From: Bdellovibrionia bacterium
Lineage (GTDB): Bacteria > Bdellovibrionota > UBA1018
NCBI GenBank assembly: GCA_038329315.1
Contig: JBBQMV010000001.1
Span: 1-33,659, forward strand
DNA length: 33,659 nt
Direction: 5' to 3'
Position numbers and translations under genes: made by a program. The notes under the pieces are model-generated. The model ran no database searches. It was not told where the DNA came from and worked only from the letters and a program-made list of their open reading frames with translations. Shown here piece after piece: positions 4,960 to 32,473 of the stretch. The first letter of the stretch is position 1. Each line of letters opens with the position of its first letter.

Positions 4960-5743
4960 CACGGTCTATTTCCGTCACGGACTGGCGCTTGAAGCAAATC
5001 GCCTGCACGCGGATCTTCACACTCGTGTCCCATCCATCCATCTGCGGATCGATCAGTGAGGGATTCAACGGACAATAGGAGTACTTCGGGATAATTCGGT
5101 TGTCCTTTTTTTCTCCGAGAATTGCGAGAGCCACCGGTGCCGCTTGGATGACTTCGAGCCGCCCCATCTGGAACTCGATGCGGGCGATATCGAAGGCCGT
5201 CAGGAACGGGTAAGCGGAAGGCGGAAGATTTCGGTTCGTCACCTTACGAATATAGATCGCCAATACGCGCTCAGGAGCGGACCGGAAAAGCTCGTCATAA
5301 ACTTCGAAGTCACTCGCCGTATCGTCACCAACGAAAATGAAGACGTCGTTCGGATTCTCATCCATCAACTTATGAATGACTCGAGTCTTATACTTACGAA
5401 GGCCTCCGAAACCAAGAAACGGCCGGGTGTGAAGTTTTCCATCAGGAAATCCGGCATCGGAAAGAAATTTCGCGGCTAAGAATCGCACGACATCCGGAGC
5501 GCCAGTGACGTAATCGAAGGTGTACTTTCGATCGATCGCGAAGGACTGGTATAACTCGCGCATTCCTGCGAAAGCCCGTTTTCCGAACAGGCCATTTGCA
5601 ATGGCAGCGAGGGGATCTCCGACATCCGTAATCTTCGTCGTATCGTCAATGTCACTCACGACTCGAATTCCGGCGCTGGCCGAAGTAGTCATGACTGAAA
5701 GACCTAATGCGAGACTGAAGACCGATGAACGAAGTTTGCGCAT
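4943..5743 (-). CDS. App1-like (DUF2183) HAD-type phosphatase, possible phosphatidate phosphatase, secreted/periplasmic
   Basis: DxDxT motif in VSDIDDTTKITD and a later GDDTASDFEVY motif, typical of the App1/DUF2183 family. Start moved to the ATG at 5743 (MRKLRSSVFSLALGLSVMTTSASA signal peptide). The longer track ORF would overlap the protease gene. Confidence 0.7.
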   Translation of the reverse strand: MRKLRSSVFSLALGLSVMTTSASAGIRVVSDIDDTTKITDVGDPLAAIANGLFGKRAFAGMRELYQSFAIDRKYTFDYVTGAPDVVRFLAAKFLSDAGFPDGKLHTRPFLGFGGLRKYKTRVIHKLMDENPNDVFIFVGDDTASDFEVYDELFRSAPERVLAIYIRKVTNRNLPPSAYPFLTAFDIARIEFQMGRLEVIQAAPVALAILGEKKDNRIIPKYSYCPLNPSLIDPQMDGWDTSVKIRVQAICFKRQSVTEIDRDAYLD

Positions 5744-26737: not shown

Positions 26738-28501
26738 ATGAGTTCATACGTCGTCCTCGCACGCAAATGGCGCCCTTCGCAGTTCTCCGATATCGGTGGT
26801 CAGGGCCCCGTGGTTCGCACTCTGATGAACGCGATTCAGTCGGATCGTATTCATCACGCTTACCTCCTCACCGGCTCCCGCGGGATCGGAAAAACCTCGA
26901 TTGCTCGGATTTTCGCGAAGTCCATTCGCTGCCCGAACGCTAAGTGGGATGGTCAGTGGCTCCGGAGTTGTAACGAATGCTCCAGCTGCCGCGAGATCGC
27001 CGCCGGGAACTCCGTCGACGTCATCGAAATCGACGGCGCTTCGAATAACGGCGTCGATGCCGTCCGGGAAATCCGGGAGAGCGTAAAATTCATGCCATCT
27101 TCCGGTTCACGGAAGCTCTACATCATCGACGAAGTTCACATGCTGACGACGGCCGCTTTCAACGCGCTCCTGAAGACACTCGAGGAACCGCCGGCTCACG
27201 TCATCTTCGTCCTCGCGACGACCGAGCCACACAAAATTCCGGGAACGATCCTCTCCCGCGTTCAGCGCTTCGACTTGAAGCGGTTCACGCCAGCTCAGAT
27301 CCAAATCCGGCTTGAGGAAGTTTCCAAAGGGGAAGAAATCACCGTCGAACCCGCTGCCCTCGCTCTCCTTTCGCGCGCCGCCGACGGATCGATGCGGGAC
27401 GCCCTCTCTCTTTTCGATCAAGTCATCGCGTACGCCGGTAAGAAAATCACTGCGGTCCAGGTCCGCGACTCGATCGGACTTATCGAGAGCCAAACCCAAC
27501 TTGGAATCCTGCGCGGAATCTTCACGCGGGACGCGAAGGGCGCGATCGAACTCGTCGGCGAAGCCTACCGTGCCGGACACGAACTAAAACTTCTCGCGAA
27601 GAACCTCCTCGAGTACCTCCATGCCGCGATTCTGATTAAAATCGGCATCGAATCGACAGGGCTTGAACTTTCGGCGGACGAAATCGCCGAACTGAAGAAA
27701 ATCGCTGCAAATCGCGAACTCGAAGAAATCGAACTCTTTTTTCAAGCTTTCCAAAACGGAATCGAGTGGATCGCCCGCTCGCCGCAGCCAAAACTAGTTC
27801 TCGAAGTTCTCATCGTGAAGTGTGCTTCTGCGGAATCGCTCATTTTAATGTCGGGCCCGATTTCTGGAAAAGGCGGCACCGGAACCGCCGGAGGTCGTAC
27901 ACCGACCGCTTCGGGCAACCCAGCTTCTGCAACCCCAGTGGCTCCCGTCGAAAAGAAAATGGGCGATCTTCCGAAAGCCGGTCTCCTCTTCACGGGCTCT
28001 TCGCCTATCGCGCTAAAAAACGCAGCCGAAACCATCGCAAACTCCATTTCGAATTTAGGCGCTAGCCGGGTACCCCAGGGCCCGAAGACGTTCGAAGGGT
28101 TTATCGGCCACGTCCGGGCTTCCCGCCCGGCGATTGCGAATGCGCTCGAAAACGCCGTTTGCGCGAGCTTCCCGACGACGAATGAAATCGAATTTATCGT
28201 CGCCTTCTCGCCTGAGAACGATGCGCTTTATCACGGTCTTCTCACGAGCAATGCCGCACTCGCGGAATTCCAGAAGTTCACGCTCGAGTATTTCGGCGTC
28301 GTGAAGCGGATTCTGGTCGAAGTGCGTGAAATGGCCGAACTTTCCCTCGCGGTCCGCCGCGAAAACGACTACGCATCCCGCGAGAAAACCGCGAAGGACG
28401 CCGCCGCCAATCATCCGCTGATCGCCGAAGCCCGTGCACTTTTCGGCGGTGAGCTCGGGCCGATCGAACTTTCGAGTAACGACGAAGGAGAGAAGAAATG
28501 A
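26738..28501 (+). CDS. dnaX: DNA polymerase III subunit tau (gamma/tau)
   Basis: LARKWRP..F.D..GQ, Walker A GSRGIGKTS, a Zn module CNECSSC, DEVHML, and SR-x-Q. A Gly/Pro/Thr-rich linker is followed by a C-terminal domain. 587 aa. Confidence 0.95.
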   Translation: MSSYVVLARKWRPSQFSDIGGQGPVVRTLMNAIQSDRIHHAYLLTGSRGIGKTSIARIFAKSIRCPNAKWDGQWLRSCNECSSCREIAAGNSVDVIEIDGASNNGVDAVREIRESVKFMPSSGSRKLYIIDEVHMLTTAAFNALLKTLEEPPAHVIFVLATTEPHKIPGTILSRVQRFDLKRFTPAQIQIRLEEVSKGEEITVEPAALALLSRAADGSMRDALSLFDQVIAYAGKKITAVQVRDSIGLIESQTQLGILRGIFTRDAKGAIELVGEAYRAGHELKLLAKNLLEYLHAAILIKIGIESTGLELSADEIAELKKIAANRELEEIELFFQAFQNGIEWIARSPQPKLVLEVLIVKCASAESLILMSGPISGKGGTGTAGGRTPTASGNPASATPVAPVEKKMGDLPKAGLLFTGSSPIALKNAAETIANSISNLGASRVPQGPKTFEGFIGHVRASRPAIANALENAVCASFPTTNEIEFIVAFSPENDALYHGLLTSNAALAEFQKFTLEYFGVVKRILVEVREMAELSLAVRRENDYASREKTAKDAAANHPLIAEARALFGGELGPIELSSNDEGEKK

Positions 28502-29127
28502 ATAACTCAGGATTCTCCGGAGCCCAGAAGAGTGACCCAGTTTCGAAACTGATCTTCGAACTCTCAAAACTTCCGGGCATCGGCGAAAAAACCGCCACCC
28601 GCCTCACCTACTTTATTCTGAAGCAAGACGCGTCCTACGCGGCGTCGCTGGCAGAAGCACTCGTATCGGCGAAATCAAAAGTCGGCCTTTGCACACTTTG
28701 CTTTACCTTCACGGATTCGGATCCATGCCGGACGTGTTCCGACATCACTCGCGACCGCGCGATGATTTGTGTCGTCGAGCGTCCTTCGGACATGAACTCG
28801 ATCGAAATGTCAGGAACTTTTCGCGGCGTCTACCACGTTCTCCACGGAGCTCTTTCTCCACTCGACGGGATAGGTCCGGACGAACTAAAAATTCGCGAAC
28901 TCCTCGACCGCATCCGCGCACCGGTCGCACCGATCCGCGAAGTTCTACTCGCGATGAATCCGAGCGTCGAAGGCGACGCTACTTCGCTTTACCTGACCCG
29001 ACTCATTCGCCCTCTTGGCGTACGTATCACCCAGCTTGCTCACGGAATTCCGATGGGCGGGCAACTCGAATACACCGACCGACAAACCATCGGTAAGGCG
29101 ATCGAGAATAGAATGGAGATGCGTTAA
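28498..29127 (+). CDS. recR: recombination protein RecR
   Basis: HhH motif LPGIGEKTATRL, a Cys4 zinc finger CTLC...CRTC, and a Toprim region. ATGA overlap with the dnaX stop. Confidence 0.95.
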   Translation: MNNSGFSGAQKSDPVSKLIFELSKLPGIGEKTATRLTYFILKQDASYAASLAEALVSAKSKVGLCTLCFTFTDSDPCRTCSDITRDRAMICVVERPSDMNSIEMSGTFRGVYHVLHGALSPLDGIGPDELKIRELLDRIRAPVAPIREVLLAMNPSVEGDATSLYLTRLIRPLGVRITQLAHGIPMGGQLEYTDRQTIGKAIENRMEMR

Positions 29128-29130
29128 AAC

Positions 29131-29724
29131 GTGAGCTTCATCAACTACTCCACCAAAGAGGTGAACTGTAAGATCGTTTACGTCGGTACCGGGCTTTCCG
29201 GTAAGACGACGAACGTCCAGTACATCTACGAACAGACGGCGCAAGACCTGCGCGGGAAGTTCTTCGCCGGAAACACCGAAAACGAGCGGACGCTCTTTTT
29301 CGACTTCCTGCCTTTAGGAGTCGGCGACGTGCGCGGATACAAAACGCGCTTCCACCTCTACACGATTCCCGGCCAAACCTTTTACGAGGTTTCGCAGCAG
29401 TTCATCCTGAAGGGTGTCGACGGTGTGATCTTCGTCGTCGATAGCCAGGCCGAACGGATGGAATCGAACTTAGAAAGTTTTGAAATTTTGACTCGGAACC
29501 TGGAACGCCAAGGTTACGACCCGAATAAACTCCCGCTCGTATTTCAGTATAATAAGCGGGATTTACCAAGCGCGCTTCCAGTCAAAGAGTTAGAACAAAC
29601 CTTCAACCCCGGTCGCAAACCGTCTTTCGAGGCGGTTGCAAGTCGGGGGGACGGGGTGATGGAGACGCTTCAATCGATCACGCAGTGGGTGATCCGTGAA
29701 CTTAAAGGGGGAGAAAAACCATGA
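29131..29724 (+). CDS. mglA: Ras-like polarity GTPase MglA
   Basis: Collinear with MglA over its full length: MSFINYSTKEVNCKIVYVGTGLSGKTTN..., ERTLFFDFLP, RFHLYTIPGQTFY, QYNKRDLP. GTG start 3 nt after the recR stop. G21, R53 and Q82 fall in the Myxococcus/Thermus numbering register. Confidence 0.9.
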   Translation: MSFINYSTKEVNCKIVYVGTGLSGKTTNVQYIYEQTAQDLRGKFFAGNTENERTLFFDFLPLGVGDVRGYKTRFHLYTIPGQTFYEVSQQFILKGVDGVIFVVDSQAERMESNLESFEILTRNLERQGYDPNKLPLVFQYNKRDLPSALPVKELEQTFNPGRKPSFEAVASRGDGVMETLQSITQWVIRELKGGEKP

Positions 29725-30131
29725 GAAAAGAAACTCTGAATCGGTTTAAGAAGATGTTCGTGGCGGAGAAGCGGAAGCTACTTTTCGCGGATAAGATTCT
29801 TCGGGATGAATTTAGCGTAAACGCAGACGATCGTTTCGACGAGATCGACCAAGCGACGACCGATGCCGAACAGGCGATGCGGATGCGCCTTTGTAACCGT
29901 GAAACCCTCTACTTGAAAAAAGTCGACGACGCCCTCGCTCGTATCGAAGAGGGAACGTTCGGCCTTTGCGAAGTTTGTGAAGAAGATATCGGACTGAAGC
30001 GCCTCGAAGCGCGGCCGACGGCTACTCACTGCGTATCGTGTAAGGAAGATCAAGAGCGACGCGAATTTCACACGGCAGCTGGTCTCACTCACAAATCACT
30101 CGGTGAAACATTCTCGAAAAAATACGCATGA
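29721..30131 (+). CDS. DksA/TraR-family C4 zinc-finger protein (paralog A)
   Basis: CEVC-x17-CVSC zinc finger, with LEARPTATHC as in DksA. A coiled-coil region contains a DxxDxA tip motif (DEIDQA, residues 40-45). A strong RBS (GGGGGAG) lies upstream, and the ATG overlaps the mglA stop (ATGA). Confidence 0.85.
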   Translation: MRKETLNRFKKMFVAEKRKLLFADKILRDEFSVNADDRFDEIDQATTDAEQAMRMRLCNRETLYLKKVDDALARIEEGTFGLCEVCEEDIGLKRLEARPTATHCVSCKEDQERREFHTAAGLTHKSLGETFSKKYA

Positions 30132-30493
30132 ACGGAATCCGTCTTGCGATAGGGGTCCTCGGCTTGATCGCCACTCTGGCGATCGCCGCGGATCCCGCGC
30201 CTTCTCCGCGCCCAGTCACGAGCACAGTGGTACCGTTCGTTCCCGAGCGGTGTGCCGCTCCGTGCATGATGCGCGAAAGCTCCGGGAAGTGCGACGCGAC
30301 GGGAAGCGAGACGTGCGGTATCGGATATGCCTGCGTTCCACGCTGCATTCTGAGGAAGGCCGATGGGAGCTGCCAAACCTACACCGCGGATTATTGCGGA
30401 TCTGGTGCGACTTGCGAATCTCGATGCCTGAACCGAAGCCCCGAAGGAACTTGCACGACGTTCGATAGTGACGCGTGCTCGACTCACCTTTAA
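30128..30493 (+). CDS. secreted cysteine-rich repeat miniprotein (121 aa)
   Basis: The ATG overlaps the stop of the dksA-like gene (ATGA). Signal peptide MNGIRLAIGVLGLIATLAIA|ADP, then a Pro-rich linker, then 12 Cys with exactly periodic spacing (C-x3-C-x8-C-x7-C-x5, repeated). Competing ORFs in other frames lack these features. Confidence 0.6.
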   Translation: MNGIRLAIGVLGLIATLAIAADPAPSPRPVTSTVVPFVPERCAAPCMMRESSGKCDATGSETCGIGYACVPRCILRKADGSCQTYTADYCGSGATCESRCLNRSPEGTCTTFDSDACSTHL

Positions 30494-30507
30494 TTCGGAC
30501 AATTTCC

Positions 30508-30528
30508 TGACGGCAAAATTTGCCGTCA
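30508..30528. promoter_or_regulatory. perfect 21-bp palindrome between the Cys-rich ORF and the ATPase gene
   Basis: TGACGGCAAAATTTGCCGTCA is perfectly self-complementary about the central A. It lies 15 nt after the stop at 30491-30493 and 75 nt before the GTG at 30603. Confidence 0.35.
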
Positions 30529-30602
30529 TTAAAAATTCTATCTCCTAAATTTCCCCTTGGATGCGAGAATAGAGACTCCTCTTTCTTCAACCGGGAGTCA
30601 TC

Positions 30603-31826
30603 GTGAGCGCCAATAGAAACGTCTACGACCTCATAGTGCGTCCTGGACGGCCGAACACGGTTCAGGAAATCGTAGATTTTTTAATCATCAACGCCTTAAA
30701 AACGAAAGCCAGTGACATTCACCTCGGACTTTCGAGTCAGGGCGGCCCGGGCGGCCTCGCCTATATGCTTCGTTTCCGCGTTCACGGAAAACTCCAAGTC
30801 GTTCGGACGGAGTTCATCGGCACGAACCACAAAGAAATCATGACTCGCTTGAAAGTGCTCGCCGGAATTTCCACGACGGAAATCGGCACGCCCCAAGACG
30901 GCATGATCAATATGAACACTCCCGAGGGGACGCTCGTTTTACGATTGAGCTTCATTCCAAGTCCGGAAGGCGACGAAGTCGTGATCCGGGTCCAACGTGC
31001 CCAAAAAATTCCGCCTCCCGAACAGCTCGGAATGACCGGCGATATGCTGAAGCACATCCAAACCCTCCTCCAACAAAAGTCCGGATTAATCGTCGTAAAT
31101 GGCCCAGCCGGGAGCGGAAAAACCACCACGATTTATTCACTGATCGCAGCAATCGCATCGGCCGAAAAGAAAATTTTAACGGCTGAAGATCCGATCGAAC
31201 TGCGGCTTCCATACGTGAGCCACACCGCCGTCGGTCGTAACACGAGTTTCGCCCAGCTTTCGAAGGCCTTCATGCGCCAAGACGCCGATGTCATCTTTAT
31301 CGGCGAGGTACGTGACCCGGAATCGGCCGAAGCCGCGGTCCAGCTCGCCCAAACGGGACACCTCGTCTTTACTACGCTTCACACTCGAGACGCGCTCGGA
31401 GTCATTCCGCGCCTCGAAGCGTTCGGCATTCACCCGAACTTTATCGCCAGTACGCTCATCGGTTCACTCGCCCAGCGTCTCGTTCCGAAACTCTGTTCAA
31501 AATGCCGAGTTGAAGACGAGGTAGATGAACCTACCCAGTTCTATATGAAATCGATATTCCCGATGTTTCAAGGAACGAAGCTCCGGAGGGCCGGGTCCGG
31601 CTGTCCGGACTGCACGGGCGGTTACCTCGGCCGAATTCCGATCTACGAACTTCTCACCCTCTCCCCAAAGATTTCCGATTTGATCAATCGGCGAGCTTCA
31701 CAAAAAGACCTTCTCGAAGCGGCCCGTGAGGGCGGGATGCTGACGCTCGGCCAAGAGGCGCTGATCCGAGTTTACTCAGGTCACGTCGACTTCAATTCCG
31801 TAAAGGGCTATATTTCCGGTTCGTAA
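30603..31826 (+). CDS. PilB/GspE-type (type II secretion / type IV pilus) hexameric ATPase, short form
   Basis: Walker A GPAGSGKTTT, Asp box EDPIE, Walker B DADVIFIGEVRD, His box TGHLVFTTLHT, and a tetracysteine CSKC...CPDC as in PilB/GspE (absent from PilT). GTG start preceded by GGGAG with a 5-nt spacer. At 407 aa it lacks the long N-terminal GSPII-type domains. Confidence 0.9.
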   Translation: MSANRNVYDLIVRPGRPNTVQEIVDFLIINALKTKASDIHLGLSSQGGPGGLAYMLRFRVHGKLQVVRTEFIGTNHKEIMTRLKVLAGISTTEIGTPQDGMINMNTPEGTLVLRLSFIPSPEGDEVVIRVQRAQKIPPPEQLGMTGDMLKHIQTLLQQKSGLIVVNGPAGSGKTTTIYSLIAAIASAEKKILTAEDPIELRLPYVSHTAVGRNTSFAQLSKAFMRQDADVIFIGEVRDPESAEAAVQLAQTGHLVFTTLHTRDALGVIPRLEAFGIHPNFIASTLIGSLAQRLVPKLCSKCRVEDEVDEPTQFYMKSIFPMFQGTKLRRAGSGCPDCTGGYLGRIPIYELLTLSPKISDLINRRASQKDLLEAAREGGMLTLGQEALIRVYSGHVDFNSVKGYISGS

Positions 31827-31835
31827 AAAAGCGAA

Positions 31836-31865
31836 CCGCCGAACGTCGTCCCTTACGTTCGGCGG
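31836..31865 (-). terminator. strong hairpin terminator, with a T-tract only on the minus strand
   Basis: Perfect 11-bp stem CCGCCGAACGT (31836-31846) / ACGTTCGGCGG (31855-31865) with an 8-nt loop. On the minus strand it is followed by TTCGCTTTTTTAC. On the plus strand it lies 10 nt after the ATPase stop but is followed by CCCTGGC. Confidence 0.55.
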
Positions 31866-32062
31866 CCCTGGCTGTAGCGGAGCGCCAGCAGTTGCCTGCG
31901 GCTGCGTCCGTCGTAATCACCTCAAATATTCTGCCCCAACGTCCCCTTTGTGACAGAGCCTGCGGTGATCAACGCCTTTCATACTTCCATGATGATTCAG
32001 AGTTTTTCACTTCCGTGTGGGTCTACCCGTCATCCGTAACGGCCAGACCGTAAGGAAGAGAA

Positions 32063-32473
32063 TTACGCGAACTTGATCTGACGACCGACGCTCTTATGCG
32101 AATGACCGTCGATGTGAAGCTTCTCGGTCCGTTCAGCCGTTTCCTTACAAGCTACGCAGAGCGTAGTCGTCGGGCGCGCTTCGAGACGGCGGAGCTCGAT
32201 GTCCTCTTCGCATTCGTCGCACTGACCGAACGAACCGGTTTGAATGCGATCGAGAGCCTCTTCGATCTTTTTGAGGTAGAGCGCTTCACGCGTTGCGAGA
32301 CGCATCCTCATTTGGTTTTCGATTTCGAACGAAGTGAAGTCCACTTCATCCATCAGATCGTCGGTCTGCATCGCGAACTTGTCGTTCGCCGCGCGACCAG
32401 AAAAGAGCAACCGGCTCTTTTCGTTTTCGAAGAGGGACTTAAACTTGGCTTGAAATTCGGATGAACGGATCAT
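32063..32473 (-). CDS. DksA/TraR-family C4 zinc-finger protein (paralog B)
   Basis: CDEC-x17-CVAC, LEARPTTTLC. Same length (136 aa) as paralog A and roughly half identical to it by eye. Its tip motif reads DEVDFT (DxxDxT). Confidence 0.85.
   Translation of the reverse strand: MIRSSEFQAKFKSLFENEKSRLLFSGRAANDKFAMQTDDLMDEVDFTSFEIENQMRMRLATREALYLKKIEEALDRIQTGSFGQCDECEEDIELRRLEARPTTTLCVACKETAERTEKLHIDGHSHKSVGRQIKFA

Follow-up and report, generated by a model that had tools for sequence, protein, structure and literature searches.

A strictly periodic four-cysteine repeat in a predicted secreted miniprotein points to a rare protein family seen in Bdellovibrio-like bacteria

Introduction

Beta-hairpin antimicrobial peptides such as tachyplesin, protegrin and gomesin bear two cross-strand disulfides, and granulin/epithelin (PF00396) has four CC doublets and inter-hairpin disulfides. 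The Myxococcus cysteine-rich repeat (TIGR02232) and DUF4215 are found in myxobacteria, likewise predators. Here we describe a gene at positions 30128-30493 of a 33,659-nucleotide stretch of Bdellovibrionia DNA (contig JBBQMV010000001.1 of assembly GCA_038329315.1, positions 1 to 33,659; hereafter ‘the window’), whose product carries 12 cysteines in three complete copies of a 27-residue repeat. An earlier note, made from the letters of the window, had proposed a secreted, disulfide-laddered miniprotein. The signal-like N-terminus of the product, a predicted hairpin fold and the paired loss of cysteines in relatives all support that proposal, and we consider it very probable that the gene is real and that its product is a secreted repeat protein, rich in disulfides, from a family not described before.

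Results

Three complete four-cysteine units in one small protein

The cysteines of the protein lie at residues 42, 46, 55, 63, 69, 73, 82, 90, 96, 100, 109 and 117, that is, with gaps of 3, 8, 7, 5, 3, 8, 7, 5, 3, 8 and 7 residues. Recounting residues and gaps confirmed the spacing exactly as first described, the repeat number of 2.75 being the one element that needed correction: the array consists of three complete C-x3-C-x8-C-x7-C units with 5-residue linkers (period 27) and stops 4 residues short of the C-terminus. With the phases of unit 1 taken as given, the other eight cysteines would all fall on them by chance, within the 54 residues that follow, with a probability of 1 in C(54,8), or about 1 in 1.04e9.

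The three units are not alike in every position. Unit 1 keeps the arginine and the first glycine of the consensus, and the threonine and glutamate at its aromatic and aspartate positions are found likewise in the closest relatives. Glycine follows the fourth cysteine of units 1 and 2 (G64 and G91), and S118 stands there in unit 3. Nucleotide identity among the units is only 42-44%; compared pairwise, they match at 0.44-0.59 of codon positions 1 and 2 and at 0.22-0.33 of position 3. This low identity, together with the matches at positions 1 and 2, implies that the repeat is old and kept at the protein level rather than the outcome of a recent DNA duplication.

At the N-terminus, MNGIR is followed by LAIGVLGLIATLAIA, a 15-residue hydrophobic core, with A18-x-A20 ahead of A21; judged by eye and from the alignment, this reads as a type I signal peptide. 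The linker that precedes the array differs in length and sequence between homologs. The mature protein is slightly acidic, with a net charge of -2.

The open reading frame (ORF) is a genuine gene. Frame +0 is the sole frame without stops in all six homologous loci with DNA, and the alternative frames are interrupted by 1-10 stops in most of these loci. Identity across seven homologous coding sequences is 0.58, 0.62 and 0.35 at codon positions 1, 2 and 3, respectively. It is because homologs keep the cysteine register, only frame +0 stays open and position 3 is unconserved that we regard the gene as real; the choice of this frame over the overlapping ORFs, put forward for checking at the outset, is thereby settled in its favor. 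The G+C content at third codon positions (GC3) is 0.66, which is typical of the genome.

A rare family with terminal repeat arrays

An exhaustive HMMER/phmmer scan of 1.84 billion protein cluster representatives returned 142 related representatives at E ≤ 1e-3, of which 59 reached E ≤ 1e-10. Among them, the top homolog, P0001, has 124 residues and is 50% identical to the window protein (phmmer, E = 2.2e-29). Against the size of the collection scanned, the family is rare. A metagenome scan with an 8-sequence alignment yielded three loci only, and a word-indexed homolog search with the single window sequence gave no match.

The cysteine register, the conservation of which the earlier note had wished to see checked, is kept: strict C-x3-C-x8-C-x7-C units are present in 138 of 143 family proteins, and 205 of 275 adjacent pairs of units are spaced by the modal period of 27. 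Repeat counts span 2 to 8 or more. The commonest layout is a signal peptide, a variable linker and three repeats, in a total of 100-190 residues. By a crude hydrophobicity test, a signal-like N-terminus is found in 135 of 147 members, and a lipobox-like motif in 17. The array nearly always closes the protein, ending no more than 15 residues from the C-terminus in 137 of the 147. In some larger members it stands behind other modules: collagen repeats plus DUF7151 in P0009, five IPT/TIG domains in P0072, and a coiled coil in P0017 and P0010.

Loci encoding the family range from 46% to 68% GC, and several lineages are therefore involved. Hosts are Bdellovibrio-like wherever taxonomy is known, the other members lying on unassigned metagenome contigs. 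One member, P0005, sits in the same Bacteriovoracaceae metagenome-assembled genome (MAG) as locus L002; the family locus L092 also encodes a Bd3614-type deaminase; and a Bdellovibrionales MAG encodes an MglA with 96% identity to the one in the window.

Eleven members (P0002, P0004, P0008, P0013, P0016, P0018, P0020, P0025, P0037, P0080 and P0124) carry a conserved 35-residue two-cysteine module before the repeats, DAxSMxxRxDGxWDVxCxDGxxEVVTxxxILAxxVC, which was also noted at L088 (1491-2273). It is doubled in P0002 and P0004, several of its carriers are lipoprotein-like, and a Pfam search gave no match to it. A 55-residue ORF at L089 (5016-5183, plus strand) holds about 1.5 family repeats, has no signal peptide and is probably a truncated remnant.

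A predicted hairpin with two probable nested disulfides

The consensus of 363 units reads C-[VA]-[PA]-x-C-x-x-R(95%)-x-S-[DN]-G(93%)-x-C-x-x-[YWF](93%)-G-x-D(96%)-[FY]-C-G. Numbering the cysteines of a unit C1 to C4, its conserved non-cysteine scaffold comprises Arg at C2+3, Gly at C3-2, an aromatic residue at C3+3, Asp at C4-2 and Gly at C4+1. The Arg, Gly, aromatic and Asp residues probably serve structure, in the turn and in packing between hairpins.

An AlphaFold2 model, built on a 64-sequence alignment of three-repeat members, has a mean predicted local distance difference test (pLDDT) score of 88.3, with 97-98 over the repeats (residues 41-120) and 58-83 over residues 1-40. The model is all-beta, with one strand-turn-strand, or beta-hairpin, per unit. 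Its strands (E) are E40-43, 46-49, 55-58 and 62-65 in unit 1, E67-76 and E82-92 in unit 2, and E95-103 and E109-118 in unit 3.

To include units with missing cysteines, units were located through their conserved non-cysteine residues (n = 386). This set contained 364 CCCC units, 11 CxxC units (in 7 proteins) and 6 xCCx units (in 3 proteins), and no in-register loss of a single cysteine. Cysteines lost solely as C1+C4 or as C2+C3 suggest two nested intra-hairpin disulfides per unit; combined with the hairpin model, this makes the pattern C1-C4 plus C2-C3 likely for each unit.

The gene closes a chain of closely packed genes

The features of the locus are collected in Table 1. The chain dnaX-recR-mglA-dksA-Cys gene is joined by 4-nt overlaps or a 3-nt gap, and the Cys gene is its last member. 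We take the small GTPase to be MglA, from the Myxococcus xanthus sequence and PMC3983030. It is 56-96% identical to the products of 80 loci, mostly from MAGs labeled Bdellovibrionota. The dksA-like product scores 92 bits against the NCBIfam dksA model, under its cutoff of 115.5. No ybaB separates dnaX from recR, and mglA has no mglB as a neighbor.

Table 1. Features of the Cys-repeat gene and its surroundings in the window
Feature	Position	Strand	Details and basis
dnaX	26738-28501	+	
recR	28498-29127	+	
mglA-like small GTPase gene, 197 aa	29131-29724	+	Pfam Arf family, 5.9e-08; 4-nt overlap with dksA
dksA-like gene, 136 aa	29721-30131	+	Pfam zf-dskA_traR, 1.6e-13, and DksA_N
Cys-repeat coding sequence, 121 aa	30128-30493	+	ATG start; TAA stop at 30491-30493; ORF list
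ATGA overlap of Cys-repeat gene start and dksA-like gene stop	30128-30131	+	Sequence GCATGAAC
Predicted Sec signal peptide, residues 1-20	30128-30187	+	Predicted cleavage A18-I-A20 / A21-D-P; read from sequence
Pro/Ser/Thr/Val-rich linker, residues 21-41	30188-30250	+	Low-confidence or disordered in model
Repeat unit 1	30251-30316	+	C42-x3-C46-x8-C55-x7-C63; degenerate (T and E at aromatic and Asp positions)
Repeat unit 2	30332-30397	+	C69-x3-C73-x8-C82-x7-C90; canonical R76, G80, Y85, D88, then G91
Repeat unit 3	30413-30478	+	C96-x3-C100-x8-C109-x7-C117; R103, G107, F112, D115
Hairpin, 9-bp stem and 3-nt loop, then A/U-rich tract	30508-30528	+	RNA fold
T2SSE-family (GspE/PilB-like) ATPase gene, 407 aa	30603-31826	+	

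Downstream of the Cys gene, the hairpin folds at -14.8 kcal/mol (z = -3.3), with none of 200 shuffles as stable. A simple scan for the terminator consensus did not call it, and its T-run is weak; it is a probable intrinsic terminator closing the chain. The GspE/PilB-like ATPase gene begins 110 nt downstream of the Cys gene. Its product aligns with the GspE and PilB models solely over their C-terminal part (profile positions 109-478 of 486) and scores far short of the cutoffs, and there are no secretion or pilus partner genes beside it. This ATPase is present in the window and in L001, and absent from L002, L003 and L083.

A second dksA paralog (dksA2) converges from 32473. Between it and the ATPase gene lies a 14-bp GC-rich hairpin (31833-31868), called on the minus strand with a T-run, which may be a bidirectional terminator. 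In L083, a comparable hairpin is found directly 3′ of the Cys-repeat gene. Upstream, the window holds core chromosome genes, namely rho, prfA, murA-like and mltG-like. A horizontal-transfer island was considered and is not supported, in view of these core housekeeping surroundings, including dnaX and recR, and of the genome-typical GC3.

The earlier note had called the coupling of the gene to mglA and dksA an odd partnership. Physically it stands: besides the ATGA overlap in the window, the mglA-dksA-Cys order recurs in L083, with the start overlap TAATG, and probably also on the contig of P0001, where a 79-residue fragment lies upstream with a 4-nt overlap. Between the window and L083, identity is 97.5% for MglA, 82% for DksA, 84% for DksA2 and 41-46% for the Cys protein. 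A functional reading of it was not supported, as L001-L003, with MglA 94-96% and DksA 83-87% identical, have other genes in the same slot. A general mglA-dksA-Cys operon was also rejected: neither tblastn nor the repeat hidden Markov model (HMM) detected a family member within 4 kilobases (kb) in 80 MglA-anchored loci. A census of the gene following dksA in 44 loci showed no recurring small secreted protein, the content being generally variable.

The dksA paralogs, which share about 55% identity, are oriented toward one another, and the content of the slot between them differs in each of five close genomes (29721-32473 in the window, 4591-7319 in L001, 4582-6633 in L002, 4591-8589 in L003 and 658-2021 in L083), while the flanking MglA, DksA and DksA2 are 73-97% identical across the five. 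The slot contains the Cys gene and the ATPase gene in the window, a small lipoprotein gene and the ATPase gene in L001, an alpha/beta hydrolase gene in L002, about 3 kb of other genes in L003, and the Cys gene only in L083. In L001, the closest relative represented by a long contig, the Cys-gene position (5018-5266, plus strand) is taken by an unrelated 82-residue ORF with a lipobox-like N-terminus (LMLGIGSGC) and five cysteines, which gave no NCBIfam match.

Elsewhere in the family, the upstream gene encodes an RmlD-like reductase in L082 and L084, and other members stand behind unrelated genes. L082 and L002 belong to one MAG, in which the paralog P0005 follows the RmlD-like gene. A start/stop overlap with the upstream gene is present in four of six loci with DNA (at 822 in L082, 1068 in L083, 204 in L085 and 30128 in the window), in the forms ATGA, TAATG, TTGA and ATGA, respectively. 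The upstream genes at these four overlaps differ: dksA in two cases, the RmlD-like reductase gene in one and a gene of unknown nature in another. The family gene seems to ride at operon tails. The coupling to dksA is real in cis but lineage-restricted; given the slot differences in L001-L003 and the unrelated contexts elsewhere, we read the mglA/dksA link as probably positional rather than functional.

Discussion

A proposed stable module for binding or scaffolding

We propose that the product would be exported by Sec and cleaved after A20, and that periplasmic oxidation would then join C1 to C4 and C2 to C3 in every unit, giving six disulfides. The mature protein of about 100 residues would consist of a flexible Pro-rich tether followed by a rigid body of three 22-residue hairpins, one per 27 residues. 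Variable surface positions would carry specificity, with the conserved scaffold of Arg, Asp, aromatic residue and Gly devoted to the turn and to inter-hairpin packing. Such a protein could withstand proteases and act outside the cell or in the periplasm as a binding or scaffold module, free-standing here and forming the stalk tip in some relatives; the Cys gene would be co-transcribed with mglA/dksA by position, without functional partnership. We give this explanation as a whole—gene, family, disulfides, and a binding or scaffold function—a probability of roughly 0.6. The narrower proposal of a binding module is more tentative, and we would not yet bet on it; it draws on architecture and on evolutionary rate, the Cys protein diverging faster than its neighbors (41-46% as opposed to 82-97.5% identity between the window and L083). 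Narrower still, and quite unlikely as a package, is a fast-evolving surface-recognition module that is co-expressed with MglA, acts at the predator-prey interface and has a fold absent from PDB.

Some alternatives concern what the ORF and its cysteines are. That it might be a chance ORF, or that the real coding frame might be one of the overlapping ORFs (30089-30529 on the minus strand, 30216-30590 on the minus strand or 30103-30468 on the plus strand), is suggested by the multiple long overlapping ORFs in this GC-rich stretch and by a codon-usage score for frame +0 that is uninformative or negative; with 142 homologs keeping the cysteine register, the alternative frames broken by stops in most homologous loci and a third-position pattern that agrees with frame +0, this idea is effectively refuted. 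The earlier note had also mentioned a metal-binding element, and four cysteines per unit would indeed suit a zinc knuckle, a metallothionein-like site or, in the shifted register C-x7-C-x5-C-x3-C reminiscent of C-x7-8-C-x5-C-x3-H, a CCCH-finger-like site, each formed without disulfides; the family profile even matches the CPSF4 CCCH zinc fingers weakly (E = 0.04). A match of that strength is not significant for a cysteine-biased profile, there is no His ligand, and signal peptides direct the protein to an oxidising compartment. Family arrays always begin with C-x3-C and end with C-x7-C, so the shifted register would strand four orphan cysteines. The strictly paired losses also count against it: read in the shifted zinc register, any C1+C4 or C2+C3 loss would disable a pair of sites, and no 4-ligand site would be left in P0122, which has three xCCx units in a row. 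Paired cysteine loss therefore disfavors a metal site, which we consider very improbable.

Other alternatives accept the disulfide-rich repeat and differ on its use. The array could be a rigid, inert spacer or stalk, a disulfide-braced rod, with the free-standing protein as a structural component of the envelope or periplasm: the conserved positions (Cys, the turn Gly and a ladder of Arg, Asp and aromatic residues) have a structural look, arrays differ in length, with 2 to 8 or more repeats, as a ruler would, and the arrays are found together with the stalk-type modules collagen, TIG and coiled coil. Yet they are nearly always extreme C-terminal, distal to the stalks and not between domains, most members amount to a signal peptide, a linker and three repeats with nothing to space, and positions outside the scaffold diverge quickly, so we rate a spacer as unlikely. 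Small, secreted, disulfide-rich and rapidly evolving is also the profile of canonical inhibitors, and a periplasmic or secreted inhibitor of proteinases or other hydrolases might afford self-protection to a predator exporting many hydrolases; the lineage is Bdellovibrio-like, one relative adjoins a secreted transglutaminase-elicitor-like protein and another lies near an M4-peptidase-like gene (a faint Pfam match). We find this improbable in view of the absence of likeness to inhibitor families in Pfam, PDB and Foldseek searches, the absence of a recurrent hydrolase neighbor, and the fact that inhibitors rarely sit at the tips of collagen, TIG or coiled-coil stalks. A functional tie to the neighboring genes, with output set by MglA/DksA or with the protein as a substrate or partner of the GspE/PilB-like ATPase, would agree with the ATGA coupling to dksA, with the gene order in L083 and probably on the P0001 contig, and with the ATPase gene 110 nt downstream. 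MglA controls prey invasion in Bdellovibrio (PMC3983030), a further point in favor. It is made distinctly improbable by the other genes in the slot of L001-L003 despite near-identical MglA, by the count of zero among 80 MglA loci with a family member within 4 kb, by P0005 standing behind the RmlD-like gene in the L002 genome and further members in unrelated contexts, by the lack of the ATPase in L083, and by the terminator-like hairpin between the Cys gene and the ATPase gene.

Several points weigh against the explanation we favor, a disulfide-stapled module for binding or scaffolding. The case for binding draws on two things only, architecture and evolutionary rate, and no conserved gene neighbor in the family loci examined points to a pathway. 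Disulfide connectivity is inferred from cysteine loss and the predicted fold. The lack of a fold match is soft evidence, Foldseek being weak on small disulfide-rich folds. By exact look-up, the Cys-repeat protein and its neighbors are absent from a 15-billion-protein collection and so have no expression or annotation support there. Finally, codon usage does not favor this frame: under a log-odds model for which 17 other window genes served as training set, the Cys ORF scores -0.11 and frame +1 scores +0.03, compared with 0.28-0.49 for real genes; the negative value arises because the composition is rich in Cys, Ser, Thr, Gly, Ala and Pro (G+C content at second codon positions, 0.63). Composition-based coding statistics can miss genes of this type.

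What emerges is a compact repeat domain of 22-residue, putatively double-stapled hairpins at a 27-residue period, with a confident predicted fold, without a Pfam or NCBIfam model and without a match among solved structures, present mainly in small secreted proteins and at the C-terminal tips of stalked surface proteins. If it is a binding unit, it would bring a new scaffold to the disulfide-rich binding domains, of which bacteria have few; it would also be a highly stable miniprotein framework open to engineering, and a handle on target recognition by uncultured predators. Should the recognition reading be true, these small secreted proteins would make up a class of recognition or adhesion factors that has so far gone unrecognised.

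Comparison with known families

As the earlier note had surmised, no known Cys-rich family matches: searches of Pfam, NCBIfam and PDB sequence profiles (with the whole domain and with a single unit), and Foldseek searches of PDB and BFVD, gave no significant match, and the family is on these grounds undescribed. The window protein had no Pfam match of note, the best being Scorpion_toxin_alpha-beta (E = 0.31; 11.9 bits, cutoff 27). The best Foldseek matches had E = 2.9 in PDB, with template modeling (TM) scores of at most 0.30, and E = 1.9 in BFVD. In the PDB sequence profile search, the CPSF4 CCCH fingers ranked best (E = 0.04), and a fragment of a snake C-type lectin also appeared (E = 0.25). 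A full-text literature search found nothing on the motif or its spacing, or on such proteins in Bdellovibrio.

The window protein has neither the six-cysteine knot spacing nor the HMM or fold match that would place it among knottins, EGF-like or CS-alpha-beta proteins. It did not match Notch LNR (PF00066) or Defensin-like (PF24552), for which only the relatives P0004 and P0008 score, at 22.5 and 21.1 bits over the whole protein and with no qualifying stretch; the precomputed label ‘PF26673 EGF_C_tripleX’ that P0074 bears reflects no more than a faint match. With TIGR02232 and DUF4215, the family shares tandem Cys-rich extracellular repeats but differs in unit length and motif; no match to them was found in the window protein (Pfam E ≤ 1, NCBIfam E ≤ 0.1) or in nine relatives (E ≤ 0.1).

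The likeness to the CCCH fingers of CPSF4/CPSF30 lies in the shifted register, in which C-x7-C-x5-C-x3-C mimics C-x8-C-x5-C-x3-H and has an aromatic residue after the first cysteine and a glycine after the second. That spacing arises only across unit boundaries, however, and lacks His at the fourth position; CCCH fingers are intracellular, whereas signal peptides occur family-wide and the predicted fold is made of all-beta hairpins. Pfam zf-CCCH did not match the window protein. A CCCH zinc finger, raised by the CPSF4 match, was rejected on the non-significant E-value and the paired cysteine loss. The distal, C-terminal arrays of P0009, P0072, P0017 and P0010 recall the tip domains of stalked fibers and adhesins, a likeness of architecture only, the window protein itself being stalkless.

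Like granulin, the window protein is a 12-cysteine miniprotein that, on the model, forms a disulfide-held stack of beta-hairpins; unlike granulin, it has no CC doublet, repeats a strictly periodic 4-cysteine unit and would form its disulfides within hairpins, and it matched granulin in neither Pfam nor Foldseek. With tachyplesin, protegrin and gomesin it would share a single hairpin per unit with nested C1-C4 and C2-C3 pairs, and with tachyplesin also C-x3-C on one strand. It departs from these peptides in its hairpin, which is 22 residues long and combines arms of unequal length (x3 against x7) with a loop of 8 residues, in the tandem arrangement of 2-8 or more units, in its net charge of -2 rather than a cationic nature, and in being a bacterial, predicted Sec-exported product without sequence similarity to them. 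By analogy, then, the predicted connectivity of the unit comes closest to that of the double-stapled hairpin peptides and the overall build recalls the granulin stack, the defining features of both being absent. We regard these proteins as an undescribed domain family whose general kind, that of extracellular disulfide-rich tandem repeats, is a familiar one.

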